Source: Patescibacteria group bacterium
GTDB taxonomy: Bacteria > Patescibacteriota > Patescibacteriia > UBA11705 > DATKZF01
Direction of reading: 5' to 3'
Assembly: GCA_049319825.1 (NCBI GenBank)
Contig: JBMORT010000009.1
Coordinates: forward strand, 3,349-67,348
DNA length: 64,000 nucleotides
Of this stretch, positions 9,160-56,168 are shown in pieces. Each line of letters begins with the position of its first letter. The first letter of the stretch is position 1. Under the pieces are notes generated by a model. It was not told where the DNA came from and searched no databases. It saw only the letters and a program-made list of their open reading frames with translations. The translations under genes and the position numbers were made by a program.

Positions 9160-10548
9160 ATGAATATTGACTTAAATAAAATAAAAAAGGTATATCTCTG
9201 CGGCATCGGCGGCATCGGCGTATCGGCGCTGGCCCGCTATTTTTTGAATTTGGAAAAAGAAGTTTGTGGATCAGACGCGGCGCCTTCTGAAATTACCAGG
9301 GATTTGGAAAGCAAAGGCATCGTGATTAATCAATCTCAGGACGCCAGCAATATCTCGTCTGATATTGATTTGTTCATCTTCTCGTCGGCGGTACCCGAAT
9401 CAAACCCGGAGCGGCAAAGAGCGAGCGAATTGGGAATTGCGGAAATCAGTTATAATGATTTTTTGGGTTGGTTGTCCGGCCAATATGATACGGTGGCGGT
9501 TTGCGGCACCAATGGCAAAACCACCACAACCGGCATGACCGCCGGCATATTGATCGATGCCCGGCTAGATCCGACGGTGGTCATAGGCTCAAATTTACCA
9601 AGGATAAAGGGGAATTTTCGGCTTGGTCAAAGCCCTTGGCTGGTGCTTGAAGCTTGTGAGTATCGGGAGCATTTTCTGAAGCTGTCGCCAAAGGCGGTTG
9701 TCATCACCAATATCGAAGAGGACCATTTGGATTATTTTCGGGATTTAAACCACATTATCGCCGCGTTTCAAAAATTTATCGATAAATTGGAGAAAGAAAA
9801 TGATATTTTGGTGATCAATAAAGATGATGAGCATTCAAAAAAATTGATTATGCCCAAATGTCAGGTGGTCACATACGGTTTTTTGGAAGATGCCGACGTT
9901 CAGGCGAGCAATTATCGCATCGAAGAAGGCCGTCAGCGTTTTTCCGTCAGCTATCTGGGTAATGACTTGGGCGAGTTCGAATTGATGGTCGCCGGAAAAT
10001 TTAACGTGTCCAACGCGCTGGCGGCAATCGCGTTGGCGCTAAAATTAAATATTAGTTTGGCCGATATCAAAAAGTCCTTAGCCAATTTTTCCGGCGCGTG
10101 GCGTCGTTTGGAGGTGATCGGGAAAAATCCGCTGGTCATTTCCGATTACGCCCATCACCCCACGGCGGTGGAAGTTACCAGAAACGCCGTAGATGATTTT
10201 TATCCCGGGAAAAGAAAAATTATCGTTTTTCAGCCGCACCAGCATAATCGAACCAAGAAGCTGTTTGATGAATTCGTGCAGAGTTTATTGCCCAGAAATC
10301 AAGACGAATTGATAATCGTGTCCGAAATATACGACGTTCGCGGCCGAAAAAGCAAGGAAGACGAAAACATCAGTTCTGAAAATCTTGTCCAGGCGATAAA
10401 TGGGAAAAAAAACCCGGATCTGGGCGAAGTTATCTATTCTCCAAACCTTGAATCGACGCTCGGATTGATTCGAAAAAAAGTTAATCCGGATGATTTGGTG
10501 CTGGTGATGGGGGCAGGCGATGTTTATGAATTAGTTGATAAGATTTAG
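9160..10548 (+). CDS. murC: UDP-N-acetylmuramate--L-alanine ligase
   Basis: N-terminal GIGGIGVSALA, Mur ligase P-loop GTNGKTTTTGM, 462 aa. Confidence 0.9.
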   Translation: MNIDLNKIKKVYLCGIGGIGVSALARYFLNLEKEVCGSDAAPSEITRDLESKGIVINQSQDASNISSDIDLFIFSSAVPESNPERQRASELGIAEISYNDFLGWLSGQYDTVAVCGTNGKTTTTGMTAGILIDARLDPTVVIGSNLPRIKGNFRLGQSPWLVLEACEYREHFLKLSPKAVVITNIEEDHLDYFRDLNHIIAAFQKFIDKLEKENDILVINKDDEHSKKLIMPKCQVVTYGFLEDADVQASNYRIEEGRQRFSVSYLGNDLGEFELMVAGKFNVSNALAAIALALKLNISLADIKKSLANFSGAWRRLEVIGKNPLVISDYAHHPTAVEVTRNAVDDFYPGKRKIIVFQPHQHNRTKKLFDEFVQSLLPRNQDELIIVSEIYDVRGRKSKEDENISSENLVQAINGKKNPDLGEVIYSPNLESTLGLIRKKVNPDDLVLVMGAGDVYELVDKI

Positions 10549-15203: not shown

Positions 15204-17996
15204 ATGCCTAAAAACCAACTTCCAAAAAAATATATGTCAATATTATCAAAAATTTTCGGCGATCCGAATCAAAAAGAAATCAATAAAATAATGAAAGTGG
15301 TTGAGCAGATAAATCAGCTCGAGCCGGAATTTAAAGCGCTTTCAGATGCTGATTTGAAAGCGAAGACTTCGTATTTTAAAAGTCAATTAAAGGACGGAAA
15401 AACACTGGATGATATTTTGCCCGAAGCCTTCGCCGCGGTCCGCGAAGCTTCCAGCCGGACTTTGGGCCAGCGTCATTATGATGTCCAGCTGGTCGGCGCG
15501 ATGGCGCTTTACCGAGGACAAATCGCGGAGATGAGAACCGGTGAAGGCAAGACGTTGACCGCGACCGCGGCTGTATATTTGAACGCGCTCGCCGGCAGGG
15601 GCGTGCATTTGGTGACTGTCAACGATTACTTGTCAAGAAGAGACGCGGTCTGGATGGGGCAGGTTTATAATTTTTTGGGACTATCCGTCGGTTGTCTGCA
15701 GCACGAGAAAGCATTTTTGTATGATGAAAATTTTCTCGGCGAACAAGCGACCGATGAAAAAAGAGACGAAGCGGGATCATATAAAATTCAAGAAAAATTT
15801 TTGCGGCCGGTCGCCAGAAAGGAAGCCTACCTGGCTGACATAACCTACGGCACAAATAATGAATTCGGTTTTGATTTTTTGCGGGACAACATGGTTTCCG
15901 ATATGGAAAACAAGGTTCAGCGTCCGCTTCATTATGCCATTGTCGACGAAGTCGACTCGATATTGATCGACGAAGCCCGGACGCCGCTGATAATATCGGC
16001 TCCAGCCGAAGAATCGGCCGATCTTTATCAAAAATTCGCGCGGCTTGTTCCCCGGCTTATTGAAAACGAGGATTATAATATCGATGAAAAAATGAAAGCG
16101 GCTGCCTTAACGGAAAACGGCATTAACAAAGTCGAGCAATTGATGGGCATTGGTAATTTTTGGACCGAAGGCGGCATGATGTTGGTTCATCATCTTGAGG
16201 AAGCATTAAAAGCGCACGCTTTATTTAAAAAAGATCGTGATTATGTCGTCAAGGACGGGGAAGTGGTGATCATTGATGAATTCACCGGTCGATTGATGGA
16301 AGGCCGTCGTTACTCCGAAGGATTGCATCAAGCTATCGAAGCTAAGGAAGGGGTGGAGGTGAAAAAAGAAAGTCGGACGCTGGCAACTATAACTTTTCAA
16401 AATTATTTCAGAATGTATAAAAAGTTGTCGGGTATGACCGGCACCGCAGAAACCGAAGCGGAGGAATTCGGTAAAATATATCATCTCGAAGTTTTAGTTA
16501 TTCCCACCAATAAGCCGATGATCAGAGAGGATAAACCTGATCGGATTTTTGCTACGGAGCTGGGTAAATTCAAGGCGATCGTCAAAGACGTCAAAGAGCT
16601 TCATGCAAAAGGACAACCGGTTTTGATCGGCACCATTTCCATTGAAAAAAATGAGATGCTCAGCCGTTTCTTAAAGCAGGCTGGCATTCCGCATCAAGTT
16701 TTGAACGCTAAAAATCACGAAAAAGAAGCGCAGATAATTGCTCAAGCCGGTAAAGTCGGGGCGGTAACGGTTGCGACCAACATGGCCGGTCGCGGCGTTG
16801 ATATCATTTTGGGCGGCGCGCCGTTTGATCAAATTGAACACGATAAAGTCAGCGCGCTTGGGGGCTTATTCGTATTGGGCACGGAGCGCCATGAATCCAG
16901 GCGCATTGATAATCAGCTACGCGGCCGATCGGGCCGCCAAGGCGATCCCGGCCGCTCGCAGTTTTATGTCTCCACCGAAGACGATCTGATGAGAATATTC
17001 GGGTCTGATCGAGTGAAGTCGATTATGCAGACACTGCGGGTGCCGGAGGATATGCCGATTGAAAACAGAATGATCAGCCGCGCGCTTGAGAAGGCGCAAA
17101 TTCGGGTTGAGGGCTATCACTTCGACATCCGAAAACATTTGGTTGAATATGACGATGTCATGAATAAACAACGTGAATATGTTTATCGGCGGAGAGATTC
17201 TATTTTAAAAACTTTTCAGCAGAACCCGGCGCACCTATCCGGGATGATCACAGAAATGATCAGCGCGGAAATCGAGCAAGTGGTAACCTTTCATGCCGCC
17301 GATCCCGACCAATCCAAGTGGAACATGAAAGAAATCGCGGAAACCTGCAAAACAATTTTCCCAGTCCCGGATGATTTAGCGCATCAATTGGCCAGCTTGG
17401 AAAAGCTGGCCGGAGATCGAGACAGCGATGTCGCGGCCCGAACGGCCATAATTGAGCATTTGGAGAATATTTTTAAACAGGATTACGCCAGGCTGGCTGA
17501 ACAGATAAATGAGTCGGGCAAAGCGCTCGAGATTGATATGCATTCGGTGGAAAAAGAAATATTGGTCCGCAGCATAGATAATTTATGGGTCGATCATCTG
17601 GACGCGATCGACAGTCTCCGCACAGGCATTGGCTTGCGAGGCTATGGTCAGCGCGATCCGTTGATTGAGTATAAAAGAGAAGCGCGGTTGATGTTCGACC
17701 AGCTGTTGAACATGATCAATCAGCAAGTCGTTTACAGTATTTTTAAGGTCGGCTTGATGCGCGCCGGCACCCGTGGCATCATGGATCGCGACAATGCCAC
17801 CTACGATGCGCCGGCAAAGGATTCGTCAGCTGCCGCATTGAAAAACAGAATGGGTGATCCGTACCAGCAGGCCAAACGGCAAGAAGTTCGGGCGGCCGGC
17901 GACCGAGTGAAAGACGCTTCGGGGAAAAAGGTCGGTCGAAACGATCCGTGCCCCTGCGGCTCTGGCAAAAAGTATAAAAAATGTTGCATAAAATAA
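15204..17996 (+). CDS. secA: Preprotein translocase ATPase SecA
   Basis: 930 aa. DEAD-like motor motifs (MRTGEGKTL, DEVDSILIDEARTPLIIS) and a C-terminal zinc finger CPCGSGKKYKKCC. Confidence 0.95.
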   Translation: MPKNQLPKKYMSILSKIFGDPNQKEINKIMKVVEQINQLEPEFKALSDADLKAKTSYFKSQLKDGKTLDDILPEAFAAVREASSRTLGQRHYDVQLVGAMALYRGQIAEMRTGEGKTLTATAAVYLNALAGRGVHLVTVNDYLSRRDAVWMGQVYNFLGLSVGCLQHEKAFLYDENFLGEQATDEKRDEAGSYKIQEKFLRPVARKEAYLADITYGTNNEFGFDFLRDNMVSDMENKVQRPLHYAIVDEVDSILIDEARTPLIISAPAEESADLYQKFARLVPRLIENEDYNIDEKMKAAALTENGINKVEQLMGIGNFWTEGGMMLVHHLEEALKAHALFKKDRDYVVKDGEVVIIDEFTGRLMEGRRYSEGLHQAIEAKEGVEVKKESRTLATITFQNYFRMYKKLSGMTGTAETEAEEFGKIYHLEVLVIPTNKPMIREDKPDRIFATELGKFKAIVKDVKELHAKGQPVLIGTISIEKNEMLSRFLKQAGIPHQVLNAKNHEKEAQIIAQAGKVGAVTVATNMAGRGVDIILGGAPFDQIEHDKVSALGGLFVLGTERHESRRIDNQLRGRSGRQGDPGRSQFYVSTEDDLMRIFGSDRVKSIMQTLRVPEDMPIENRMISRALEKAQIRVEGYHFDIRKHLVEYDDVMNKQREYVYRRRDSILKTFQQNPAHLSGMITEMISAEIEQVVTFHAADPDQSKWNMKEIAETCKTIFPVPDDLAHQLASLEKLAGDRDSDVAARTAIIEHLENIFKQDYARLAEQINESGKALEIDMHSVEKEILVRSIDNLWVDHLDAIDSLRTGIGLRGYGQRDPLIEYKREARLMFDQLLNMINQQVVYSIFKVGLMRAGTRGIMDRDNATYDAPAKDSSAAALKNRMGDPYQQAKRQEVRAAGDRVKDASGKKVGRNDPCPCGSGKKYKKCCIK

Positions 17997-25232: not shown

Positions 25233-25260
25233 TTTATGAACATTTTTATTAAATATATTG

Positions 25261-25406
25261 GGTCTTGGTCTTGGTCTCGGTCTGGGTCTGGGTCTGGGTC
25301 TCAGTCTTGGTCTTGGTCTTGGTCTCGGTCTTGGTCTTGGTCTCGGTCTTGGTCTGGGTCTCGGTCTTGGTCTGGGTCTCGGTCTTGGTCTGGGTTTTGG
25401 TCTCGG
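25261..25406. repeat. Hexanucleotide microsatellite (GGTCTN) x ~24
   Basis: Near-perfect period-6 tandem array. It encodes (GL)n on + and (RP/KP)n on -. Confidence 0.95.
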
Positions 25407-25595
25407 TAATTTTATGATATATAGACTTCGTGGCAAGGGAAAACTTAATAACAAAAAGCGATGGAAAAATCTAAATATTCTTTGTAAAAAGACTGAAAAA
25501 AGGCACGACCTCTTATGTCGGGGTAGGAATGAATCCTGATTATTATAATACGCATAAAAAATCTAAGAAGTGGTGGCAGATTTGGAAATAATTAT

Positions 25596-34802: not shown

Positions 34803-36149
34803 ATGATGAAACGGTTCAAATTATTATTTATCGTGTTTCTCATAGCGATTACAACGCTTGTCAGTTTTGGATTCGCGGATGCCGCACAACAAAAAATAGC
34901 GTTCAAAAACCTGCTGGTGGACGGGAATATGGAAAAATCTGGCGTGACGGATTGGACTACGGGCGGGTCGCCGACGGTAACCAAGTCGACATCAAATCCA
35001 TTTTCTGGGACACAAGTTTTGCGCGTCGCAATAGGCGGCACGGCGAATCCTTATGTATATCAATCGGTATTAACCAACGGACAAACATATAGAATACAGG
35101 GACGGACACGAGGAGACGCAACGGCTTATCCCGAATTTAGGTCGGCCACTGATTCGATGGTATGGACGGGAACTACAAGCACTACTTGGCAGCCTTTCAA
35201 TTTTACGCATACGGCGACAGGAACTTATATCCGAATGAATACGAGAGGGAATGCTGGCGGTGGGAATTACGTTGAATGGGAAGACGTAACGATAACGCTG
35301 GAAGCGCCTCCCCAGAAAGTCGCGTTCAAAAATCTGTGGGCAGACGGGAATTGCGAGGCCAGCGGAGTTACGGCATGGTATGCGTATCGAGATAACGCCA
35401 GCAAATCAAAACAAACGGCCAATCCATTCAAGGGGACGCAGTCTTTTCGTTCCACTATTCAGGCCGGATGGGTAGACGAAGGTGTGTCTTCTGGTCCCGT
35501 TCTAACCGTTGGTAAAATATACCAAATTAAATATCGCGGACATGGCGACGGGACTATTGGCACGACATTATATCAAGGAACGGGACAGAGTTTACTTGGC
35601 GCGGCATTCTCAAGCTCTACTTCATGGCAAGTTGGGACTACTTATACTTTCACTGCGGCATATACCAGCGTTATGTTTTATATTTCCGGTTCGCCGGGCA
35701 ATTACATCGAGCTGGACGATATAACGTTGACCGAATACACCCCTCCCCAAAAAGTCGCGTTCAAAAACCTGCTGGTGGACGGGAATATGGAAGCCAGCGG
35801 GACGACGGCGTGGACGTCCAGTAGTGGTGCTGTAATAACTAAACAAACAACAAACCCATATTCGGGGACGCAATGTATAAGGATTGCTACTAGTGGATAT
35901 GCCTATAATAGTTTTGCAATAACGGTCGGTCAAACATATAGATTGCAAGGTCGAGCAAGGAGTGATGGGACAAGCACGCCAGTAATTGGTCAAGGTGGGA
36001 ATACTCTGTGGACGGGGACGACTTCGACGGCATGGCAACCGATAAATGTTTCTTTCACCGCAAGTGGACTGACTTCATTTAGGCTGTATGCGAATCCCGG
36101 CGGAGGAACATATAGCGAATACGATGATTTGACATTAACACTCGAATAA
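34803..36149 (+). CDS. Secreted protein with three tandem CBM4/9-like carbohydrate-binding repeats (candidate receptor-binding protein)
   Basis: Signal peptide. Three ~145-aa repeats each start QK(I/V)AFKNL(L/W)(V/A)DGN(M/C)E.SG.T.W and end in GG(G)(N/T)Y.E(W/Y)(E/D)D(V/L)T(I/L)T. Repeats 1 and 3 share more than 30 identical nucleotides. Confidence 0.6.
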   Translation: MMKRFKLLFIVFLIAITTLVSFGFADAAQQKIAFKNLLVDGNMEKSGVTDWTTGGSPTVTKSTSNPFSGTQVLRVAIGGTANPYVYQSVLTNGQTYRIQGRTRGDATAYPEFRSATDSMVWTGTTSTTWQPFNFTHTATGTYIRMNTRGNAGGGNYVEWEDVTITLEAPPQKVAFKNLWADGNCEASGVTAWYAYRDNASKSKQTANPFKGTQSFRSTIQAGWVDEGVSSGPVLTVGKIYQIKYRGHGDGTIGTTLYQGTGQSLLGAAFSSSTSWQVGTTYTFTAAYTSVMFYISGSPGNYIELDDITLTEYTPPQKVAFKNLLVDGNMEASGTTAWTSSSGAVITKQTTNPYSGTQCIRIATSGYAYNSFAITVGQTYRLQGRARSDGTSTPVIGQGGNTLWTGTTSTAWQPINVSFTASGLTSFRLYANPGGGTYSEYDDLTLTLE

Positions 36150-43723: not shown

Positions 43724-46700
43724 ATGTTTCAGGGTTTATTTACGCAATCAAAAACAGTAGCTACAAATCAGAAAACGGGGGGGACTGCAAAGCCCTCTTT
43801 TTCTGGTTTGTTTAGTAATAGAGGGGAACAAAAAGCTCAAAAAAACAATAAATTTGCTGGAGCGGTTATCAGCGCTGATCAAAAAAAGGTCGGGATGTTT
43901 AAAGATTTATTTAAGGTTGGGAAAAAAGGATATGAACGGGCTGGTGATATAGCCAGTAAAAAATGGAGCGAGACGAAAGAATTTGTAAAAAAATATCCGA
44001 CCCCACTTGAGTATATATCTCAAAGGAAATATGAGGGGTGGGCCGGACAAAATAAAAGTTTATCAATTCGGAAACAATATGGATTCGCACTGCCGGAAAT
44101 AACCGATTTAACAAAATCGGGGTTTGATCCCGAATTATTGGAAAAAGCGAATGACTTTAAAAGTATTCCATTAAGACATAAAATAACTCAATTTTCTCTG
44201 CGTACTCAAACGCAATTAGTGGATCAAGTATCAAGAAGTTTTGCTTTTACTACGGATTATATAATGAAAGACCCTGTTCGCGCGGCCGCATTACGAGATA
44301 TGGCAAAGAATCCTTCGATTTTGGGGGGATTTAAAGCCGGGGCTACTTACGCTGCTGGGAAGTTTGTAGAAAAAACAAATACGGGAAAAATGTTAAAAGA
44401 TAAATGGGTTAATTTTTATGATGGCCTCAAAGAAAAAGGGATTATTCCAACAGATAAGGCAGTCCAGCTTGCGAATACAATGAAGCAATTACCATATATG
44501 CAGAATAGAAAAGAATGGGAAGGTGCTCCACTAAAAGATAAAATGACAAAATATTTAGGAGAAACTTTATATAATCTTGGACCAAGTTTATTTGCGTCTG
44601 TGGCGACTTATGCCGCCAGTCCGTCTTTTGGTTTTTCCGTAACGGCCAGTTCAACCGCATATGATGTAAAAGAAGATGCCATAAGATATGGCGTTGATGA
44701 AAAAAAAGCTGAAAATTTGGGATTAATAACGGGTTTGTTGGTAGCGTCGCTTGATAAGATTGTGCCGGATAAAGCTTTCTCGAAGAATATAAAAAATAAA
44801 TTCATCGGAAACTTTGCAAAAAGGATTATAAAAAGTAATGTGCTTGAAGCCGGAACGGAAATGGGACAGGAGAATATTCAAATTTTAGCTGAAGCGACTT
44901 TCAGGGATGATTTGGGTTGGGACGAAATCAAGACGCGCAATGCGATGGCGGCTTTGGGTGGGTTGGCCGGTGGTAGTGCAATGGAATCAATAAGCACGTT
45001 TAGTAATACAGTCCAGAGAGACGCGCTTTTTGAGGATATACGAAATATAAAACCCGGATTTACAGTAGAAGAGGTTTATGATGATAATTTAATGAATGAG
45101 GCGAAAAAATATAAAACGGCAGAGGATTTTATTGTAGCGGCTGAAAATAAAAAGATTGATGTATCTTCTATTGCAGAATGGTCGGATTTAAAATTTTCTG
45201 ATTTGGGGAAAATAGGAAATATTAAAACAAAAAGTCCGATATTTAAAAAGAAAGTGAAAGATGTTTCAACCGAGATATACGAAAAAACGGCACGGGAAAT
45301 TTTTGAGAATGCAAAAAAGAATGGGGAAAGTTGGGCCAAAAACAGAAGATATGAAAGCGTGTTTTCGGAAGCATTCGCCCGTGCAACAGAAAAGTTGACT
45401 CGTGGAGGTAGAATTGGAGAAAAGGAAGTATTGGATGGTTGGAGTAGAAAGGTATTAAAAGAAATATGGACTACAGCACAATATAAAACAAAATCACCTT
45501 CTGACACAAAACGTGCTCTGTCTGAAGACCGCCTCGTCAATGTTAATAATAAAACTCATAAATACAAGAGTGTGAAGGAGCAAGTAAAAATACCTTATGC
45601 AAAGTCGCTTATACAAAAAGCATTTGATAAAGACTTGCCAAACAAGACGCCAGAATATATCCAAGACTTACTTGTTAAATTACGAGATGAAGAAGCACGG
45701 GCAATTAGAAACGGGGTTGATACGAGCAAAACTTCTTATACACAGGCTGGATTTATCAACGAAAATCTCAAACAGGCACTTGACAACGTAATAAAAACCA
45801 AATCTCAACTCCAAGAAAAATTTGAATATAACACGCCAGCGATCATAGAAGCCCGGGAAAAGGCAATGTCTATTCCCGAGACAATAAATATACAAACAGA
45901 AGAACGAAATAATTTGAGAGATAAAATTGTTCGAGAATATTACGGAACGGGAGCAAAAAATAAAAACCGACGCGCCGATTTAGTTTTAGGCGTGCCTGCT
46001 TCTGGAAAATCGACCTTTTTTGGCGACCATTTAGTTAATAAGTATGGTTCACTATTGGTTGATTCTGACCAAATTAAAAAGATGTTGCCGGAATATGAAA
46101 ATGGCATTGGCGCCAGTTCGTTACACTTAGAGTCTGCTATGCTTGCCGATGATATTATCCTATCCAATGCGATACAAAATGGTGATAATGTTGTGTTGCC
46201 CAGACTTGGGAAAAACGAAAAAACGATGATTGAGCTTATAAATTTATTGAATGATTCGGGGTATGATGTTCACTTGCATTACATGGATTTACCAATAAAA
46301 GAAGCGGTCAAGCGTATAATATCAAGATTCAATGAAACGGGGCGTTTTGTTGACCCACAATTTTTAATAGAAAAAGTTGACGGAAAACCCAAAATAGTGT
46401 ATAATGCAATCAAGAGTAGAAAGGAGATTAGATCTTATGAAGCATACTCAAACGATGTTCCAAAAGGAACAAAGCCAAAACTCATCGAAAAGTCAGTATA
46501 TGACGCTGGACGAGATGGACGAATACAGCAATCTCGTGGCGATCAGGACTTTGCGAAGATTCGTAGCAAAAAAGAAAGGGAAATAAAACAGACTCAAAAA
46601 AAATCTGAAAATGAGTATTTTTCGGATAACGGGTCTGTTTTTGAATACAAAGAAATGTCTAAGGAAGAAACAAAAACAATGCAACAAGCATTTGGCGTAG

Positions 46701-49252
46701 TGGACGGAAAATCTGGATTTAGTTTTTCACAAGAAAAAGAAGAACAATATAAACAATTCAAAAAATTAAAATTAAGAAAATTAGACGAAATCGAAGATGC
46801 TACACAACTAAAAGAAAAATATCCGAACATGAATATTGATAATATTTTATATTCGCAAGAGCAATCAGGGGATGAAGTATTTGATGATTTTAAGGACAGA
46901 CTTTTAGCCGAGAGGGAAGCAAAAAAACAACAGATCGAAATACGGAGAGAAAAAGCTGAAAAAAACTGGGCCGTAAAATTGGAAAGGTCCAGAATTTACA
47001 AAACTATAATCAAAAGAAGGAAAGAGGTTAAAAATATAAAAGGTTTTTTCAAACTATCCGATGTTGACTTGAAACGCATAAATGGCAAGGATTGGCGATT
47101 TATGGATGAGGTTGAATATAAAATGTTTTTAGATGAAATAAAAAGAAAAGCCATGCAATTCACGGAAAAGAGAGAAGCTAAAAATAAATTGATGGCCACT
47201 ATACAAAGTAAAGAATTGAAAAATACCGACGATCTAAGAAAAGCAATGAAGCTCCCGTCAATTGATCAAATGACAGTCGCGCAAATGGAGCAATTCAATA
47301 AAGCACTCGAGCCGTACATGGAAGGAGATGTGTTTTTAAGTCAAAGGTTATTGGAGACTGTTGAAAATACAGAGCTGGGAGAATATAAAACATATAGGGA
47401 AGTTCAAGAACATCTATCTAAAAAGCTGGGGGTTCCGATCGCCGAATTAAAAGAAATTAAAGCCGGCTGGGTTGAAAAGTCTTTATATGACACTGCTTTG
47501 GCAAGGAAAAATCCATTTTATGCTTATGTTATAGATCAATTCAATAAATATGAATTGCAAGCTACAAAGGAATATTTGGATAGGAAAAAAGAAATAAATG
47601 TATTGGTTAATAAGGCAAGGAAATCCAGAGAACGAAGTTTGTTTGATAAACTTATTCCTACGGATAAAATCGTATTTGAATATTTGGAAAGCAACGATGC
47701 TTTAAAAGAGAAGTTATCGGAAGGAATGACAAAAGAAGAATTGGACTTGGCTGGATTTCTACAAGCTGATTTTTTCAGGATGCGCAATGAATTGATAAAA
47801 AAAGAAGCGTTAAAAAAATATAGAGAAAATTATATTACTCATGTGCAGCGAGGATTTTTAGAAGCGGTTAAGGATGGTGGATTAAAGGCTGGATTTGTGG
47901 AAATGTTTAAAAAATATAAATTTGAGGAAGCATATTTTAATATCATTGATGAAACCGGAAACGTCCTTGCGCTTGAAAAATTCTTTTCAAATTCATTACA
48001 TAGGACTGGGGAAGTCAGCCCTACTCAAAATGTCGCAAAAGCTTATTTAACTTATGTAAAATCTTTTGAAAAGAAGATGGCTTTAGATTCTGTAATTCCG
48101 GAAATAATGGCATATTCTCAGGTTTTAACAAAGGATGTCCGGACCCCGCGGGGACTTGTAAAAGATAAAACATTGATTACTTTTATGAAAAAGTGGATCA
48201 ATAATAAAAAGGGGCGGCGTCATAAATTATTTATTGAACAGGGAAATAGATTAGACGCTTTCATAAAAATATTAAATTCATTTATTACGCTTCGAGACCT
48301 GGGTTTTAATGTATATACTTCAATAGCTTCAAGGGTCGGAGAAAATGTAACAAATTTCGCTACGTTGGGCTTGAAAAAGTATGCTCTTGGTAGGGCGAGG
48401 GCAACCACTCAAAATGGCAGAAAAATATCAAAGCAATATGAAAATTTCATTGGAGAAAATCCGTTTTTAGATATAATACATGATTCAAGTCAGCACATTG
48501 GCGAAAAAACAATGAGGATGGCTTTTATTGGATTTGCGGACGCCACATATAGGTCAAATAAACACTTTCTCCTTGGATCAATGACGAAAGAAGAATATGA
48601 AAGCGGGGAAATTTCGGACCAAAGATTGGCTGAATTGAGACGCGAAATGGGCAAGTATAGAGTCGTGGAAGGAGCAAAATCAATAATGGGAAGCACGACT
48701 GAGGGCGAAATGTTTTTGAAGTATAGAAGTTGGGCCGTGCCGACTTTGATGACAACTTATAGCAATATCAAAACATTGATTAAAATGGCCGGACAGAAAA
48801 AATTCGCAAAAACTGAATTTTTAGAATTGACAAGAATAACACTTATATCAATAAGTATGTATTTATTAATGGCTACTTTGTTTGATGACGATGATGATAG
48901 CTTTTTGGGGAAACTGGCAACAAAGGCAAAAAGAGAATCGATGTCTTTAATTGAAGCATTAAAACCCACAACGTGGGCGAGTACATTTAGGATGCAAGCT
49001 TTTTTCATTGACTTGGCAAAAAACGTTATGTCAATGATCAATATGGAAAAATATAAAACAAAAGAGGGATATAAGGGGTGGGAGGGATTGAAAAAAACAT
49101 TAAAGCCGACTATGGTCAGTCAGATACAAGGATTTTTTGGAAACGAAAAAGAAGACGAAAAGTCTTCTGCGTTGCCAAGCCTGCCCAAATTACCGTCCCT
49201 TCCTCAATTACCCGGCTTGCCGGCGTTGCCGTCTTTACCTTCCTTACCATAA
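43724..49252 (+). CDS. Giant virion/ejection-type protein (1842 aa) with an embedded zeta-toxin-like P-loop kinase domain and a C-terminal (LPxLP)n repeat
   Basis: Walker A GVPASGKST. The LVDSDQIKKMLPEY and ASSLHLESAMLADD blocks (nt ~45950-46420) fit the zeta-toxin/PezT UNAG-kinase fold. C-terminal TM helices are ITLISISMYLLMATLF followed by a DDDDD stretch. The tail is LPSLPKLPSLPQLPGLPALPSLPSLP. Confidence 0.7.
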   Translation: MFQGLFTQSKTVATNQKTGGTAKPSFSGLFSNRGEQKAQKNNKFAGAVISADQKKVGMFKDLFKVGKKGYERAGDIASKKWSETKEFVKKYPTPLEYISQRKYEGWAGQNKSLSIRKQYGFALPEITDLTKSGFDPELLEKANDFKSIPLRHKITQFSLRTQTQLVDQVSRSFAFTTDYIMKDPVRAAALRDMAKNPSILGGFKAGATYAAGKFVEKTNTGKMLKDKWVNFYDGLKEKGIIPTDKAVQLANTMKQLPYMQNRKEWEGAPLKDKMTKYLGETLYNLGPSLFASVATYAASPSFGFSVTASSTAYDVKEDAIRYGVDEKKAENLGLITGLLVASLDKIVPDKAFSKNIKNKFIGNFAKRIIKSNVLEAGTEMGQENIQILAEATFRDDLGWDEIKTRNAMAALGGLAGGSAMESISTFSNTVQRDALFEDIRNIKPGFTVEEVYDDNLMNEAKKYKTAEDFIVAAENKKIDVSSIAEWSDLKFSDLGKIGNIKTKSPIFKKKVKDVSTEIYEKTAREIFENAKKNGESWAKNRRYESVFSEAFARATEKLTRGGRIGEKEVLDGWSRKVLKEIWTTAQYKTKSPSDTKRALSEDRLVNVNNKTHKYKSVKEQVKIPYAKSLIQKAFDKDLPNKTPEYIQDLLVKLRDEEARAIRNGVDTSKTSYTQAGFINENLKQALDNVIKTKSQLQEKFEYNTPAIIEAREKAMSIPETINIQTEERNNLRDKIVREYYGTGAKNKNRRADLVLGVPASGKSTFFGDHLVNKYGSLLVDSDQIKKMLPEYENGIGASSLHLESAMLADDIILSNAIQNGDNVVLPRLGKNEKTMIELINLLNDSGYDVHLHYMDLPIKEAVKRIISRFNETGRFVDPQFLIEKVDGKPKIVYNAIKSRKEIRSYEAYSNDVPKGTKPKLIEKSVYDAGRDGRIQQSRGDQDFAKIRSKKEREIKQTQKKSENEYFSDNGSVFEYKEMSKEETKTMQQAFGVVDGKSGFSFSQEKEEQYKQFKKLKLRKLDEIEDATQLKEKYPNMNIDNILYSQEQSGDEVFDDFKDRLLAEREAKKQQIEIRREKAEKNWAVKLERSRIYKTIIKRRKEVKNIKGFFKLSDVDLKRINGKDWRFMDEVEYKMFLDEIKRKAMQFTEKREAKNKLMATIQSKELKNTDDLRKAMKLPSIDQMTVAQMEQFNKALEPYMEGDVFLSQRLLETVENTELGEYKTYREVQEHLSKKLGVPIAELKEIKAGWVEKSLYDTALARKNPFYAYVIDQFNKYELQATKEYLDRKKEINVLVNKARKSRERSLFDKLIPTDKIVFEYLESNDALKEKLSEGMTKEELDLAGFLQADFFRMRNELIKKEALKKYRENYITHVQRGFLEAVKDGGLKAGFVEMFKKYKFEEAYFNIIDETGNVLALEKFFSNSLHRTGEVSPTQNVAKAYLTYVKSFEKKMALDSVIPEIMAYSQVLTKDVRTPRGLVKDKTLITFMKKWINNKKGRRHKLFIEQGNRLDAFIKILNSFITLRDLGFNVYTSIASRVGENVTNFATLGLKKYALGRARATTQNGRKISKQYENFIGENPFLDIIHDSSQHIGEKTMRMAFIGFADATYRSNKHFLLGSMTKEEYESGEISDQRLAELRREMGKYRVVEGAKSIMGSTTEGEMFLKYRSWAVPTLMTTYSNIKTLIKMAGQKKFAKTEFLELTRITLISISMYLLMATLFDDDDDSFLGKLATKAKRESMSLIEALKPTTWASTFRMQAFFIDLAKNVMSMINMEKYKTKEGYKGWEGLKKTLKPTMVSQIQGFFGNEKEDEKSSALPSLPKLPSLPQLPGLPALPSLPSLP

Positions 49253-49799: not shown

Positions 49800-49842
49800 A
49801 ATTTTTAATTGATAATAATCCTATCTTCAAAATAACACCGAA

Positions 49843-49871
49843 TCATAGCAGTTGGCAATAGGGATGTCAAC
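49843..49871 (-). promoter_or_regulatory. Sigma70-like promoter (TTGACA-17-TATGAT) reading leftward
   Basis: On the minus strand, TTGACA is the reverse complement of 49866-49871 and TATGAT the reverse complement of 49843-49848. The spacer is 17 nt. Confidence 0.5.
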
Positions 49872-49878
49872 AGGGGGT

Positions 49879-49907
49879 TGACGATAAATAAAAAAGGCGA
49901 TATAATG
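49879..49907 (+). promoter_or_regulatory. Sigma70-like promoter (TTGACG-17-TATAAT) reading rightward
   Basis: TTGACG 49879-49884, 17-nt spacer, TATAAT 49902-49907. It lies 7 bp from the divergent promoter. Confidence 0.55.
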
Positions 49908-50495
49908 TTATCCACTTATCAGATTGAGTAATAGGCAATAAATTTGATATAGTGTGAATATAACAAAGACATTCCCTGAAAAGGGAACGTCTTTGCGAAT
50001 CCTAAGAAGCCGCCATTTTGGCGTCTTCTTCTATTTTCTTGCGTTTCCAGTAATCTGGATCAGCGAGAAAACAGAAGGCGCGACGGCCGACTTCTCTTGC
50101 CCATAATACTCGTCCATTGCGGAGAGTAATGTAGGGCCGGCAAATTATTTCTGCCATATTTTATGGTTAAATCCCAATAAACTATGTCAGAAACGAGGGA
50201 ATATTTCGTCTTCTGAGAATAGTTGGTATAGGAAACCTAATCCCAAAAGACAAAAAAAATCCCTTAGCCCGTATCCTGCAACCAACATTTTGGAAGAAAA
50301 TGATTGGCCGTAGTTGTCCTGGCAACCATTTAAGCTATGGCGCAGGATACCAGCTAAGGGATTCTTACTCTGGAATAACGGGCTTCATAGATAGAAAGAG
50401 GACAACTTTCTTTCTATGAACTGTAATTATAATTTATCAAAAGTTTTAAAATATGTCAAATATCCACAGCGAAAACGGCTAAAAATAGGGCAATA

Positions 50496-50524
50496 TTGAC
50501 AAATCGGTTTGCGTAAAGTATAAT
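50496..50524 (+). promoter_or_regulatory. Consensus sigma70 promoter (TTGACA-17-TATAAT)
   Basis: TTGACA 50496-50501, 17-nt spacer, TATAAT 50519-50524. It reads into the antisense of the tRNA. Confidence 0.55.
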
Positions 50525-50567
50525 GCTTTGTTATGGTAGAAGTGGAGACAAAAAAATACCTAGATAA

Positions 50568-50640
50568 AGGGGCGGGCAGACTCGAACTGCCAACTTAGGG
50601 ATTAGTAGTCCCTTGATCTGTCCAATTGATCTACGCCCCC
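50568..50640 (-). tRNA. tRNA with a canonical cloverleaf but an atypical anticodon loop CUACUAA (nominal anticodon ACU)
   Basis: The reverse strand folds into a complete cloverleaf: GGGGGCG TA GATC AATTGGACA GATC A AGGGA CUACUAA UCCCU AAGUU GGCAG UUCGAGU CUGCC CGCCCC U. The D-loop GG, the T-loop TTCGAGT, a 5-bp anticodon stem and a short variable loop are all present. Position 1-72 is a G-U wobble pair. CCA is not encoded. Confidence 0.6.
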
Positions 50641-50654
50641 TTATCTGGGTATTT

Positions 50655-50830
50655 TTATTTTAAACAAAACACGTCAATGGCAGACACTTCGCAGGGCGTT
50701 CCGGACATTCCGTTTACGACCCCACGATTTACCACTCGCGAGGCTCTTTCCTAAGAAAGTTAGCCCGACGAAGTGGCCACCATTAACGTGTTATTGACCT
50801 TGAAGTCTGCCATGCCTTGGTAAAGGCAAA
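50655..50830 (-). ncRNA. Candidate structured RNA upstream of (co-oriented with) the tRNA
   Basis: On the minus strand the 5' end ATGGCAGAC pairs with the 3' end GTCTGCCAT, enclosing about 125 nt. Nested complementarity includes GGCT...AGCC, CTTTC-TTAG-GAAAG and CCAC...GTGG. No ORF is present. Confidence 0.3.
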
Positions 50831-50951
50831 AATATTTCTTAATAATATTATATCACGCCTAAAAATCTTCTGCAAATAATTGTGGACAGCCGACTTGACA
50901 AACGATATTATCAATGTTAAATTATAAATAATAAAATAACAATGCGGTGAA

Positions 50952-50985
50952 CCCCTCTATATTTTCGAGGGGTTTTATTTTTCAA
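50952..50985 (+). terminator. Hairpin plus T-run terminator
   Basis: CCCCTC TATATTTTC GAGGGG followed by TTTTATTTTT. Confidence 0.5.
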
Positions 50986-51019
50986 AAAGTGTCCAACGAA
51001 TGTCCAAAAAATAAAACGA

Positions 51020-51208
51020 TTATAGAAATTTTTTCAAATTCTTTTTTAATTCTTCGCAGTTGATGTCTTTCGTGTAGTGATAATAAGTAGAGCGAGAAAG
51101 ACCAAGAAAATCAATAATATCCTGCGTTTTGATATTCTCATTGTCTTTAAGGCAATGCAAAATGCAGGCGCATATTTTTATAATTTTTTCTCTTTTTTCT
51201 TTGGTCAT
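51020..51208 (-). CDS. Small HTH regulator (excisionase/repressor-like)
   Basis: MTKEKREKIIKICACILHCLKDNENIKTQDIIDFLGLSRSTYYHYTKD. The start is at 51206-51208. TGTCCAA repeats flank the gene. Confidence 0.5.
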   Translation of the reverse strand: MTKEKREKIIKICACILHCLKDNENIKTQDIIDFLGLSRSTYYHYTKDINCEELKKNLKKFL

Positions 51209-51235
51209 AATGTCCAAGGAGTGTCCAAAAACGAC

Positions 51236-51265
51236 TTGACGATATTTTAAAATCAATGTTAAAAT
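51236..51265 (+). promoter_or_regulatory. Putative integrase promoter
   Basis: TTGACG 51236-51241, 17-18-nt spacer, TAAAAT-like -10. Tandem TGTCCAA repeats sit immediately upstream at 51211-51228. Confidence 0.4.
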
Positions 51266-51268
51266 CCA

Positions 51269-52192
51269 TTGTTATTTCAATTATACAATATGCGGTTAAG
51301 TTTGGCAATAAAACAATTTACGGAGTGGCGCGCGTTGAAGGTCGGGCAAAACACGAATCAAGGCTACGAATTGGTTTTGAAGCAATTTTGTTTGTTTATG
51401 AAAAACTGCGAGATTGAAGATGTGCAATTATCGCATATTGTTGAATGGTTTTCGATGATGCAAGAGCTCGGCTGGGATTCAAATAGTTTTGTAATCAAAT
51501 CAACCGCGTTGCGCAAATTTTTTGAGTTTAATAAAAAGCAGGGATTTGAGGTTTTGGATCCATGGTTTATTTTCACGCCCAAGGCAAAATTCAAAATTCC
51601 TCGCATTATTACCGAGGAAAACTACCAGAAGTTATTATCAGCCATACCTGATAATAACGATCCCCGTCATATACGAAACAAGGCTATAATTTCGCTTCTG
51701 TGGGACACGGGAGCCAGAAACGGGGAAATTGTCAGCTTAGATATTCAAGGCCTCGATTTGGTCAATTTCAAGGCTTTAATCTACACAGAAAAGTCGAAAG
51801 GGGCAAGGCCGGTGAGGGAGATGTTCTGGACAGAGGAAACGAATAAAAATCTCCTGCGATGGATTGACCGGCGAGAGCATTTGTCGCAAAAAATGAAATG
51901 GATTGATCCCGAGGCTCTTTTCGTCTGCGTCAGCTTCCATGCCGGAGAGAGATTGACGATCAAGGGTGTTGGAGAAATGCTACGCCGGTATTCTAATCAA
52001 GCAGGAATCGAAACGATGAACGCGCATAGTTTCCGTCATCACTTGGGCCGCGAAATTATTAAACGGGGCGGGACTAATGCCGATGTGATGAATGTTCTCG
52101 GCCATGCGACGCTGGAAAGCACGAAGCCCTATACATGGCTTGAAAATAAAGAAATCGAGAAGCGATATAGGAGTCTCAAGTTATCCACATAA
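51269..52192 (+). CDS. int: Tyrosine-type site-specific recombinase (phage integrase)
   Basis: 307 aa. An N-terminal SAM-like core-binding domain and a C-terminal catalytic domain with R (WDTGARNGE), HxxR (HSFRHHLGR) and the Y of TKPYTWL. Confidence 0.85.
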   Translation: MLFQLYNMRLSLAIKQFTEWRALKVGQNTNQGYELVLKQFCLFMKNCEIEDVQLSHIVEWFSMMQELGWDSNSFVIKSTALRKFFEFNKKQGFEVLDPWFIFTPKAKFKIPRIITEENYQKLLSAIPDNNDPRHIRNKAIISLLWDTGARNGEIVSLDIQGLDLVNFKALIYTEKSKGARPVREMFWTEETNKNLLRWIDRREHLSQKMKWIDPEALFVCVSFHAGERLTIKGVGEMLRRYSNQAGIETMNAHSFRHHLGREIIKRGGTNADVMNVLGHATLESTKPYTWLENKEIEKRYRSLKLST

Positions 52193-52198
52193 TAAAGG

Positions 52199-52453
52199 TT
52201 GGCAATAATTTTAAAGGGTGTTATCATACATATAGATAATAAAGAAAATTACTATATGTCTAAAGCATTCGGGTCAAAACCAGATTATAAAAGTATTAAA
52301 AAGGCGAAAAGATTAAGAAAAAGGGGGCTATCTTATCGGAATATAGTTAAAGTAATGGGGCGTCAAGATATCAAGACGATATTCCGCTGGATCAATAATT
52401 ACGACGAAAATCTTAAACGAATCAAAGTGGATAACTCGCTTGACAAAGTATAA
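52199..52453 (+). CDS. Small HTH-like basic protein
   Basis: KRLRKRGLSYRNIVKVMGRQDIKTIFRWIN. The start is possibly at 52256. Confidence 0.3.
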   Translation: MAIILKGVIIHIDNKENYYMSKAFGSKPDYKSIKKAKRLRKRGLSYRNIVKVMGRQDIKTIFRWINNYDENLKRIKVDNSLDKV

Positions 52454-52638
52454 AAGGTTGGCTATAATACAATCAAGAACATTGAAAACTTAAAATCAAA
52501 ACAAAGGATAACTGAGGTGTTTATTCCATGCGGTTCTGGCCAATAATATAAAAAATGCTGCGGTGGCTAATAAAAAGTCCGAAAAAGACTCAATGTTTTG
52601 TTGCTTTTAAAATGAAAAAGAAGCTTGTTAAGCTTCTT

Positions 52639-53221: not shown

Positions 53222-55249
53222 ATGGCAAAGCTGAAAAGCAGAACAAAAATCAGAATTTCAGTCGGCATAATTATCGTCTTGGCTTTGGTCATGGCTGTCT
53301 TTGATTTTCCTCAGCCGATAAACAACGCCTTAGCCAAATTGGGGATCGATAAAAAGATACAAGGCACTGATTTTCATTTGGGGCTTGATCTTTTGGGTGG
53401 CACCCACTTGGTTTATGAGGCGGATACATATCAGATAGAAGAATCCGAAAAAGGCGCGGCGCTTGAAGGCGTCAGAGATGTAATTGAAAGAAGGGTGAAT
53501 GAACTTGGTGTGGCAGAGCCGTTGGTTCAAGTTAATCGGTCGGGGGAGAAATGGCGGGTGATAGTCGAGCTGGCCGGCATCAAAGATGTTGGAGAGGCAA
53601 TCGACATGATCGGCGATACGCCGCTTTTGGAATTTAAAGAAAAAAATAATGAAGTCCCAAGAGATTTGACAGCCGCTGAAAGGACCGACCTCGAAGCTTA
53701 TAATAAGAACGCCCAGAACCGAGCCAATGATATTTTAAGCAAAGCGCTGGCCGGAGAAGATTTCGGCGAGTTGGTCAAATTATATTCGGAAGACGATGAT
53801 ACTAAGTCCAATCAGGGTGAATTAGGATATATATCCGCTGACGGTCTCTATTCTGACATATATACGTTAGCCGATAAAACAGAGGTAGGGCGGGTGATAA
53901 ACAGCGTCATCGAAAATCCGGAAGGGTTAAACATTGTCAAAGTATTGGCAAAAAGAGACGGTCCGGAGGAAATACGCGCCAGCCATATTTTAATATGTTA
54001 TGAAGGAATTGATTTCTGTCAGGATCAAATATCAAAGGAGGACGCCAGAAAAAAGATCGAAGAAATCAGAAGTCAGGCGACATCGGAAAATTTCGCTCAG
54101 CTGGCTAAAGATAATTCCGCTGATCCGGGCTCGAAAGATAATGGCGGTGAGCTGGGTTGGTTTACTAAGGAAATGATGATCGAGCCGTTCGCCACCACCG
54201 CGTTTGATCTTGCGAAGGATCAGATTTCCGAGGTGATTGAAACGGATTTTGGCTATCATATTATTTATAAAGCCGATGAGCGTGTTCGGCCAGAGTACCA
54301 AGTGGCCAGACTGCTGGTTGATTTGAGAGATCAATACGATTATGTCCCGCCGGTCGAGGAATGGAAAAATACCGGCCTGTCTGGCAAGCAGCTCAAGCAC
54401 GCCGAGGTTGTTTTTGACCCCAACACCAATTTGCCTCAGGTCAGTTTGGAATTTAATGAAGAAGGTAAAAATTTATTTTCGGAAATTACTAAACGCAATG
54501 TCGGCCAGCAAGTGGCGATATTTTTGGACGGTTCGGCCATCAGCATTCCGCGCGTTAATGAAGCTATTACCGATGGTCGCGCGGTGATATCCGGCAGTTT
54601 TAACATCAAAGACGCTAAACTTTTGGCTCAGCGGCTCAACGCCGGTGCTTTGCCGGTGCCCATTCAGCTCGTCAGCCAGCAAACGGTTGGAGCGACTCTG
54701 GGCCATGAATCGCTCAATAAAAGTTTAGTTGCCGGGTTGATCGGATTGATCTGCGTCGCGCTGTTCATGATTGCTTTTTACCGCCTGCCGGGTCTGTTAG
54801 CGACTGTCGCGCTGTTCATTTACGGAGTAATCGTCTTGTTTTTATTCAAATATATCCCGGTGACGCTTACTTTATCGGGAATTGCCGGCTTTCTGCTGTC
54901 TATCGGCATGGCTGTCGATGCCAATATTTTGATTTTTTCCAGAATGAAAGAGGAAGTGGCTGAGGGCAAACCGCTTGATTTGTCGGTACAGGAAGGCTTT
55001 CGTCGCGCTTGGCCGTCCATTCGCGATGGCAACATATCCACGCTGTTGACTTGTTTCATATTGGCTTGGTTTGGCACCAGCATGATTCGCGGGTTTGCCA
55101 TCACTTTAATAGTCGGCGTGTTAATCAGCATGCTCTCGGCGATTGTCATTACGCGGCAATTGCTGAAAGTGTTGGTGACTCCGAAAAGACAGGAAAATTC
55201 CAAGTTTTTATGGTTGTTTGGTGTGAAAAGCCGTGTAGTTAAAAAATAG
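53222..55249 (+). CDS. secD: Protein translocase subunit SecD with an inserted PpiC/parvulin-type PPIase domain
   Basis: SecD start [14 protein letters not shown] and C-terminal TM bundle. A parvulin signature block, ASHILI...[22 protein letters not shown]...FGYHIIYK, sits at nt ~53960-54285. Confidence 0.85.
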
Positions 55250-55250
55250 T

Positions 55251-56168
55251 ATGAAGGAAATAATACAAAAAAGGAAAATTTGGCTTATTTTTTCCGGCAC
55301 GCTGGTAGTGCTCAGTATTTTAGCGTTGATCGCTTTTGGCCTAAAACTGGGCATTGATTTTACCGGCGGCAGTTTATATGAAGTCAAATTCCGGCAGCAA
55401 GTTCCGGCCCCATCCGATATTCGTCAATCATTATCCGAATTGACCATTGAAGGTGAGATTGTCGTTCAACCGGCTGGAGACGACGGGTTTATAATTCGAA
55501 TGAAGCCGGATGATGAGCAGACTCACCAGCAAGTTATTGAAAAGCTGCGCGCCGCATTTGACGCCAATGACGCTCAAAATTTGGAGGAATTGAGATTCGA
55601 ATCAATCGGACCATCAATCGGCGCTGAATTGCGAGACAAAGCGGTAATCTCCATAATTTTAGTGCTCATCGCCATAATTTTATATATCGCCTGGTCTTTT
55701 CGAAAGGTTTCCTGGCCGATCGCTTCTTGGAAATACGGAGTGATCGCCGTGATCGCTTTGTTCCACGACATACTGATTACCATGGGCGTTTTCGCGGTGC
55801 TGGGTCGGTTCATGAATATTGAAGTCGGTTTGCCATTCGTGGCCGCGTTGCTGACCATTTTGGGTTATTCGGTTAACGATACTATCGTGGTGTTTGACCG
55901 CGTGCGCGAGAATTTGGCCAAGCACGGCCGAGGAGATTTTGAAAAATTGGTCAATTCCAGCGTCAATCAAACATTGTTAAGATCGATGAATACCTCTTTG
56001 ACCACACTATTAGTTTTAATAGTGATATTCATTTTTGGCGGCGCTTCGATTAAGTATTTCGTCTTGGCCCTGATAATCGGCATCGGCTTTGGCACCTACT
56101 CATCAATTTTCGTGGCCAGTCCGTTGCTAGTTGTTTGGCATAAGCTGACCAGGAAGCTTAAGGAATAA
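55251..56168 (+). CDS. secF: Protein translocase subunit SecF
   Basis: 305 aa, GIDFTGGS start, six-TM core, tightly coupled to secD. Confidence 0.85.
   Translation: MKEIIQKRKIWLIFSGTLVVLSILALIAFGLKLGIDFTGGSLYEVKFRQQVPAPSDIRQSLSELTIEGEIVVQPAGDDGFIIRMKPDDEQTHQQVIEKLRAAFDANDAQNLEELRFESIGPSIGAELRDKAVISIILVLIAIILYIAWSFRKVSWPIASWKYGVIAVIALFHDILITMGVFAVLGRFMNIEVGLPFVAALLTILGYSVNDTIVVFDRVRENLAKHGRGDFEKLVNSSVNQTLLRSMNTSLTTLLVLIVIFIFGGASIKYFVLALIIGIGFGTYSSIFVASPLLVVWHKLTRKLKE

Follow-up and report, generated by a model that had tools for sequence, protein, structure and literature searches.

What does a bacteriophage gain from a tRNA gene whose anticodon has no place in the normal bacterial set? The question is raised by a 64-kb stretch of a contig of a Patescibacteria group bacterium (candidate phyla radiation, CPR; JBMORT010000009.1 in assembly GCA_049319825.1, positions 3,349 to 67,348; hereafter the window, meaning all 64,000 nucleotides analysed), where a class-I tRNA gene with the anticodon ACU lies inside a prophage. 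Phage tRNA genes are common; an adenosine at the wobble position (A34) in the split AGN codon box is outside every normal bacterial decoding set. The simplest reading is that of a point-mutated tRNA-Arg, and we give about an even chance to the gene being an anticodon mutant of a phage tRNA-Arg of the AGR-reading type, whose value for decoding would be corrupted or lost and which lies in a putative hairpin terminator for both directions. Should it be expressed and receive the amino acid that its identity nucleotides point to, a mobile element would here carry a natural tRNA for Ser-to-Arg missense decoding. Such a case would be relevant to the way in which anticodon mutations give rise to new decoding capacities, to mistranslation, be it a cost or a weapon, and to the tRNA biology of the poorly known Patescibacteria phages. 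The same locus also reveals a CPR prophage family found upstream of secD, here evidently in the 3' end of secA, to which it gives a replacement SEC-C tail, and an orphan structured RNA next to the tRNA.

The tRNA gene is genuine, structurally intact and canonical for its class. ARAGORN, a run of which the earlier note had proposed as a check, makes a single tRNA call in the window (50566-50641, minus strand, 'Ser'(act), anticodon ACT), and the Rfam family RF00005 matches 50567-50640 of the same strand over its full length (model positions 1-71 of 71) with 61.6 bits, the gathering score being 29 and the E-value for the whole window 6e-11. No second tRNA gene was found in the window or in approximately 15 kb of extra flank beyond it. 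Read along the minus strand, the gene starts with the acceptor strand GGGGGCG and U8 A9, followed by the D stem GAUC/GAUC with the loop AAUUGGACA, a single A, the anticodon stem AGGGA/UCCCU with the loop C32-U33-A34-C35-U36-A37-A38, the variable loop AAGUU, the T stem GGCAG/CUGCC with the loop UUCGAGU, the second acceptor strand CGCCCCU, which closes the stem with G1.U72, and the discriminator U73; CCA is not encoded. This is a 7/4/5/5 cloverleaf in which all nucleotides of the tertiary contacts are kept (U8-A14, A15-U48, G18G19/U55C56, U54-A58, C13-G22-G46), and the anticodon arm is flawless, with a 5-bp stem, a 7-nt loop, U33, A37 and A38.

The description made from the letters alone, namely, a canonical class-I cloverleaf on the minus strand with the anticodon ACU, an A34 abnormal in bacteria, the CUA string repeated in the loop CUACUAA and no Ser-type long variable arm, is borne out in all these respects: both tools agree on the fold and place ACU at positions 34-36 (window 50604-50606), and the variable loop has 5 nt. 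ACU pairs in Watson-Crick fashion with the serine codon AGU and matches no arginine codon, the arginine set being ICG, CCG, UCU and CCU.

The body of the tRNA is nevertheless of the arginine type. In a BLAST search with a permissive threshold over positions 8-62, nearly all true phage tRNA matches are tRNA-Arg, with three groups of phages represented that are unrelated to each other (phiEco32-like, My1 and Vibrio phage Her-like). The tRNA-Arg(UCU) of Escherichia phage phiEco32, Pectobacterium phage My1 and Vibrio phage Her are also of class I and share with the window tRNA an identical D stem and loop TCAATTGGACAGA (alignment A3; G18 G19 A20 C20a A21), U33, C35, U36, A37 and A38, and a 5-nt variable loop ending in GUU. 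The anticodon loops differ only at positions 32 and 34 (UU-UCU-AA vs CU-ACU-AA), that is, C32 and A34 of the window tRNA correspond to U32 and U34 of the phage ones; further differences are U73, the long leader-trailer helix, and an unrelated acceptor stem and T arm, both GC-rich and Trp-like. Among the 17 annotated tRNAs of phage My1, the best match is Arg(UCU), with 51 of 74 positions identical overall and 28 of 36 in the D and anticodon arms.

The arginine identity set of bacteria comprises A20, which is the main determinant for the synthetase, C35, U/G36, A/G73 or U73, G2-C71 and C3-G70 (PMC9976931), and the window tRNA carries A20, C35, U36, G2-C71 and U73. In our comparison set, the base following G18G19 is A in nine of ten tRNA-Arg, two CPR ones included, and in five of 33 other tRNAs. 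ACU is one substitution away from three arginine anticodons, UCU, CCU and ACG. As for the phages with a tRNA-Arg(UCU), codon usage in the phage genes exceeds that of the host both for AGA (15.7 vs 10.1 per 1000) and for AGG (7.0 vs 3.8), approximately 1.6-1.8-fold, which fits an ancestral tRNA-Arg(UCU) compensating for codon usage. Judging by these nucleotides, we classify the gene as an arginine-type tRNA of the AGA/AGG-reading kind with a U-to-A change at the wobble position (UCU to ACU); its acceptor and T-arm halves may be of other origin.

Two other identities do not fit the gene. A tRNA-Trp has CCA and G73, not the ACU and U73 observed here, despite the best BLAST similarity discussed below, and a bacterial tRNA-Ser, being of class II, is incompatible with the 5-nt variable loop. 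Thus, the serine label suggested by the anticodon, both in the ARAGORN call and in the earlier note, does not extend to the tRNA itself: the long variable arm is absent, and the body and the identity elements, when compared, are of the arginine type.

The only normal A34 gene of bacteria is that for tRNA-Arg(ACG), with the loop CUACGAA in E. coli. The window tRNA shares with it A20 and A34-C35 in the CUAC-AA loop, and is one substitution away (G36 to U). Unlike tRNA-Arg(ACG), it has U36 and not the G36 required by the deaminase TadA, and it belongs to the split AGN box, in which neither A34 nor I34 would keep serine and arginine codons apart. TadA recognises the sequence U33-A34-C35-G36 and is strict about G36 (PMC10586758), and among bacterial A34 tRNAs deamination is confined to Arg(ACG) (PMC3711424); hence A34 of the window tRNA should stay unmodified. 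An unmodified A34 reads all four codons of a box, U-ending best, C- and G-ending also, and A-ending worst (PMC3711424), so that ours should pair best with AGU (Ser).

As to charging, position 34 varies among the arginine isoacceptors and lies outside the identity set, and thus arginyl-tRNA synthetase (ArgRS) should be expected to charge the tRNA. Taken together, we infer that arginine would be inserted at AGU and AGC, to some extent at AGG, and poorly at AGA; as a decoder, the tRNA would be a Ser-to-Arg missense tRNA and no useful supplement for AGA. Classical missense suppressors such as those of glyT, glyU and glyV, which read AGA or AGG, likewise have one anticodon substitution that shifts the codon while the charging identity is kept; they are products of laboratory selection, and their charging is often poor. 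Here, in contrast, position 34 is not a determinant for ArgRS, and full charging would be expected. Natural bacterial tRNAs with an unmodified A34 are the tRNA-Thr(AGU) of Mycoplasma capricolum and the tRNA-Arg(ACG) of Mollicutes lacking TadA (PMC3711424), but these serve four-codon boxes, in which the promiscuous reading by A34 is harmless.

If AGU were reassigned to arginine, AGU codons would be expected at positions where homologues conserve this residue. AGU and AGC codons of the host align with serine in 57% and 64% of the homologue cases, respectively, and AGA and AGG align with arginine. For the phage genes, 12 AGU sites have aligned homologues; at these positions, which are variable and make a small sample, we observed N, D, K, A, T, S, G and others, and never R. 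Reassignment of AGU to arginine was therefore rejected.

Nor did we find a relative that carries the gene. No tRNA lies beside the integrase in any of 73 related loci, in the viral contigs closest by the head protein (57-61% identity; a walk along a 35.6-kb viral contig included), or in the contigs closest by the 1842-aa virion protein of this prophage. A search of 5.8 billion proteins revealed no homologue of the adjacent 124-aa gene, BLAST of the 3.3-kb region against the phage collection gave no match, and literature searches on the ACU anticodon in phages yielded nothing relevant. An exact-pattern scan with the anticodon left free (AAGGGACTNNNAATCCCTAAG) gave no match in viral contigs, and all 17 matches in metagenome contigs were unrelated (intron-containing tRNA-Leu(UAA), tRNA-Asn, or non-tRNA sequence). 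The accessory region of this prophage is unique, and the tRNA is a single unconserved instance, so that selection on ACU cannot be shown. Since the phage AGU codons are not arginine-like and no relative carries the gene, we prefer an accidental mutant to an adapted decoder.

Two matches of a different kind were met in these searches. The pattern of the T arm and the acceptor strand matched one GC-rich viral contig that has no tRNA there (L106, IMGVR_UViG_3300027635_000001, 9428-9520): it contains the identical 23-nt T arm plus acceptor 3' strand GGCAGTTCGAGTCTGCCCGCCCC, with GGGGGCG 19 nt upstream, lacks both D and anticodon arms, and is called a tRNA by neither ARAGORN nor Rfam; this segment may be a tRNA 3'-fragment or an attachment-site remnant. 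The other is an ARAGORN call of one more A34 tRNA, 'Asp'(ATC), in a CPR contig (L036, 3838-3908, minus strand), at 2.7 kb from a homologue of the integrase; it is 71 nt long, its D region is atypical, and the call may be false or point to a second unusual tRNA.

The neighbourhood of the tRNA gene is summarised in Table 1. The acceptor stem is prolonged by an inverted repeat (I2) with two 23-nt arms that are 91% complementary. On the minus strand the helix is followed by a U7 run, encoded by seven A at 50550-50556, and on the plus strand, just past the second arm, by TTTTTATTTT at 50652-50661, which gives a U5AU4 run. The tRNA with this stalk folds as a cloverleaf on a long stem on both strands (-47.3 kcal/mol, z -6.3; -50.7 kcal/mol, z -8.6), with far greater stability than shuffled sequences. 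A simple terminator scanner makes no call for the 23-bp helix and its U-runs, the 'loop' being the whole tRNA. Leader-trailer pairing like the 16 bp of the window was not found in seven CPR tRNA genes, in a crude ungapped comparison that misscored the window helix itself. Thus, the extended inverted repeat with a T-run reported around the tRNA in the earlier note is confirmed and has T-runs for both strands, and so is the consensus promoter aimed at the antisense strand, all 12 positions of which match. Plausibly, the hairpin could terminate transcription in both directions, and the tRNA looks like the loop of a putative bidirectional terminator between convergent transcription units. The RNA predicted from the perfect promoter would be approximately 125 nt long, complementary to the whole tRNA, and would end at the stalk and U5AU4.

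Table 1. Features of the tRNA locus and of the prophage ends, in window coordinates.
Feature	Position	Strand	Remarks
Class-I tRNA gene	50567..50640	-	anticodon ACU, A20 in the D loop, U73, no encoded CCA; ARAGORN and Rfam RF00005
Inverted repeat, 3'-side arm in the tRNA sense	50552..50574		I2 and folds; includes the acceptor 3' strand
Inverted repeat, 5'-side arm in the tRNA sense	50634..50656		I2 and folds; includes the acceptor 5' strand
Structured RNA-like element, 134 nt	50664..50797	-	inverted repeat I1, directly 5' of the tRNA on the tRNA strand
Perfect sigma-70-type promoter TTGACA-17-TATAAT	50496..50524	+	12/12 match, points into the tRNA antisense strand
Promoter-like site TTTGCA-18-TATAAT with TG	50847..50876	-	10/12 match
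Tyrosine integrase	51290..52192	+	Pfam Phage_integrase; ATG start 51290
attL, intact secA 3' end	17952..17987	+	direct repeat D9; SEC-C motif CGSGKKYKKCC
attR, degenerate copy of the secA SEC-C	52526..52561	+	PCGSGQ*YKKCC; just past the integrase and a small HTH gene

Such promoters are enriched in the window: there are two perfect TTGACA-17-TATAAT sites, and seven sites with at most one mismatch compared to 0.64 expected from shuffled sequences. Four of these seven crowd within 49842-51308, on both strands, and overlapping divergent promoters separate a small helix-turn-helix (HTH) gene (51020-51256, minus strand) from the integrase. The second perfect site (52440-52468, plus strand) is at the right edge of the prophage and faces outward, to secD/secF; it could restore transcription of secDF after the prophage had split these genes from secA.

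Directly upstream of the tRNA, at a distance of 8-24 nt, lies the structured RNA element, an imperfect stem of approximately 32 bp enclosing three hairpins. Its minimum free energy is -67.1 kcal/mol (z -7.7) on the minus strand and -47.8 kcal/mol on the plus strand, and seven of its 49 pairs are G.U pairs available on the minus strand only, which suggests that the RNA is made from the tRNA strand. The only good minus-strand promoter candidate for the two (50876-50847) is upstream of the structured RNA, and no acceptable one was seen by eye between 50641 and 50668; thus, the structured RNA and the tRNA are probably co-transcribed. The element belongs to no Rfam family, even with permissive thresholds (the tRNA is the sole Rfam match), and a covariance-model search found no homologue in approximately 0.9 Mb of related loci. 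Both long helices, the tRNA stalk and the stem of the structured RNA, are plausible RNase III substrates.

Hence, the following scheme may be proposed. The structured RNA and the tRNA would be transcribed together from the minus strand, probably from 50876-50847, the transcript stopping at the leader-trailer helix and the U-run, while the same helix, with its T-run on the other strand, would halt the convergent plus-strand transcript from the perfect promoter. The precursor would be trimmed by RNase P and RNase Z, possibly after RNase III had opened the 23-bp helix, and CCA would be added afterwards. ArgRS would then charge the tRNA, TadA would leave A34 alone, and the product would favour AGU in pairing, AGC and AGG coming next and AGA last. 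The anticodon ACU itself would have arisen in this lineage by a point mutation in a phage tRNA-Arg(UCU) that compensated for codon usage; the mutation would have abolished or corrupted the function, and would be tolerated, or kept, at low expression.

Several observations weigh against this scheme. The best overall BLAST match, and the single significant one in the phage, plasmid and E. coli collections used, is not a tRNA-Arg but the enterobacterial tRNA-Trp (76.4% over 72 nt), which is also the sole tRNA match in all 5,426 E. coli genomes. The similarity sits in the acceptor stem (GGGGCG/CGCCCCU), the D loop (AAUUGG) and the T arm (AGUUCGAGUCU), although tRNA-Trp has CCA instead of ACU, G73 instead of U73 and A1 instead of G1, and lacks A20, so that the tryptophan determinants (CCA, G73) are absent from the window tRNA. 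The tRNA body is thus a mosaic, and descent from tRNA-Arg(UCU) is not proven. Within the arginine set, C3-G70 is replaced by G3-C70, and G1.U72 is unusual; the rules themselves were established for bacteria outside CPR, namely, E. coli and T. thermophilus. Finally, a neutral or harmful point mutation leaves the 16-bp leader-trailer pairing and the perfect antisense promoter unexplained, and selection should act against a tRNA that puts arginine in place of serine, even though the gene shows no other flaw.

The main rival explains just why the anticodon would no longer matter. If the tRNA is a non-decoding pseudo-tRNA, the cloverleaf would serve as a handle for RNase P and RNase Z and, with its stalk, as the terminator of the structured RNA, and the anticodon would be free to drift; the structured RNA would be the true product, e.g. 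an immunity or regulatory RNA. The location of this strand-specific RNA 8-24 nt upstream with no promoter in between, the unusual 23-bp stalk with T-runs, and an anticodon that makes no sense given the identity set all speak for this variant. RNase P matures the CI RNA of P4 and the C4 RNA of P1, and MALAT1 carries mascRNA, which may be regarded as precedents. A closer one is tRNAOther of Bacillus cereus, a pseudo-tRNA by a genomic island with a proposed non-translational role (PMC3399842): it is also tRNA-shaped, sits at the edge of mobile DNA, and shows a mismatch between the anticodon and charging, but its structure is non-canonical and its role has experimental support, whereas the window tRNA is canonical. 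On the other hand, a mere processing handle does not need a perfect anticodon arm, and the structured RNA has no homologue or known family, so nothing marks it as a functional product. We consider the pseudo-tRNA possible but unlikely.

The anticodon mutant of tRNA-Arg remains preferable also to a true AGU decoder, that is, a tRNA charged with serine or another small residue and supplying the increased AGU usage of the phage. ACU is the exact partner of AGU, this codon is 1.7-fold more common in the phage genes than in the host ones (11.3 vs 6.6 per 1000), and the phage AGU sites align with small or polar residues. However, AGA and AGG are equally enriched, the identity nucleotides are those of arginine, and bacterial seryl-tRNA synthetase depends on the long variable arm (Table 1 in PMC9976931), in place of which there is a 5-nt loop. 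This makes a serine-charged decoder improbable.

One could also suppose that arginine is placed at the serine AGY codons on purpose. The tRNA would then be a deliberately mistranslating, toxic molecule, released as a weapon or corrupting translation in competitors or in the host, and silenced by the convergent promoter and antisense RNA in the manner of type I toxin-antitoxin or abortive-infection systems. The predicted properties (arginine charging, AGY reading, an unmodified A34), the flawless structure, the location of the module among the accessory genes at the prophage end, and the perfect promoter, whose predicted RNA would be fully complementary to the tRNA and end at the same hairpin, are all compatible with toxicity. 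They do not positively support it, the idea being pure inference with neither precedent nor conservation. Moreover, convergent promoters and terminators are common at prophage ends, and here four of the seven near-consensus promoters lie at 49.8-51.3 kb, with another perfect one at 52440. A purposeful toxin, in either of these roles, thus seems quite improbable.

A sequencing or assembly error in the anticodon was also considered, as the sequence comes from a metagenome assembly of one sample only. Nonetheless, the window, derived from NCBI, and the independent Logan assembly of SRR32167788 agree at 1491 of 1491 positions over 49800-51290, and the region is non-repetitive; an error is, accordingly, very improbable.

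A stop-codon suppressor or another code-changing tRNA, which the earlier note left open in view of the two CUA strings in the loop, can be all but dismissed. Suppressor tRNAs of phages are known, but both folds, with a 7-nt loop and U33, leave only ACU at positions 34-36, not CUA, UCA or UUA. The stop usage, which had been proposed as a check, is normal: the phage genes, intact under code 11, end with TAA (17), TGA (4) and TAG (1), one phage open reading frame (ORF) runs uninterrupted for 1842 codons, and TAG ends four host genes. The genetic code is unchanged, and there is no basis for a suppressor role.

No more credible is an attachment site, or a scar left by integration, derived from a tRNA: tRNA genes are the target of many phages, and this one adjoins an integrase, but the junction repeats are a secA SEC-C segment, the tRNA is approximately 1.9 kb inside attR, and the other prophage end has no tRNA fragment (3' 21 nt with at most three mismatches; shared words of at least 9 nt), contrary to the attachment structure offered in the earlier note. 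The same note had allowed for an unusual phage-borne tRNA, and this is what we observe: a complete prophage of approximately 34.6 kb, with the secA duplication at its ends, encloses the gene.

The prophage lies between secA (15204-17996) and secD/secF (53222-56168), and the flanks carry genes for RuBisCO, AMP phosphorylase and R15P isomerase typical of CPR. The attachment sites, 83% identical over 36 nt with the common core TATAAAAAATG, are the last 36 nt of secA and a degenerate copy of them; evidently, the prophage entered secA at its 3' end and brought a new SEC-C tail in place of the original one, which was displaced and has decayed. Its genes encode a Sak4-like annealing protein, an exonuclease, a replication initiator, NinB and HNH proteins, a large terminase, a portal, a major head protein, an adaptor, and proteins with M23 and CHAP domains (endolysin-type). 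The tRNA is thus phage-borne, at the accessory, or lysogeny, end of a Patescibacteria (CPR) prophage, within 1.5 kb of non-coding DNA that separates the virion genes from that of the integrase.

In eight other CPR genomes a homologue of the integrase, approximately 55% identical, is found in synteny with secD, and hence the integrase could have been taken for a host Xer gene. This was rejected, as the genes upstream of the homologues are phage genes: in the PHROGs scan of two loci (L066 and L021) a large phage virion protein (phrog_9854) is encoded just upstream of the integrase, and in L066 an endolysin as well. In three further loci (L016, L025, L046) the ORFs upstream of the integrase homologue are of the same size and in the same order as in L066 and L021, and in L066, as in the window, the next gene after the integrase is a small HTH gene. 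Accordingly, the integrase is that of a prophage family whose insertion locus is conserved: in several other CPR genomes, too, it stands at the end of a prophage and directly before secD.

Some features of the other prophage genes may also be mentioned. The 1842-aa virion protein (43724-49252, plus strand) contains an internal zeta-toxin/AAA_33 P-loop kinase domain (residues ~747-889) and a C-terminal tail rich in Pro, Leu and Ser; only four distant relatives were found for it, 38-41% identical over 14-39% of its length. Between early genes of the phage, at 25237-25431, there is an array of approximately 30 hexanucleotides GGTCTN, which reads (Gly-Leu)n on the plus strand and (Pro-Arg)n on the minus strand, and at about which the Logan assembly breaks. 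Direct repeats with 117-nt and 45-nt units, 71-96% identical and spaced by approximately 430 nt, occupy 34890-35813 in a tail-fibre-like gene (34803-36149) containing a carbohydrate-binding module (CBM); a second Logan contig begins near them, which is probably an assembly break.

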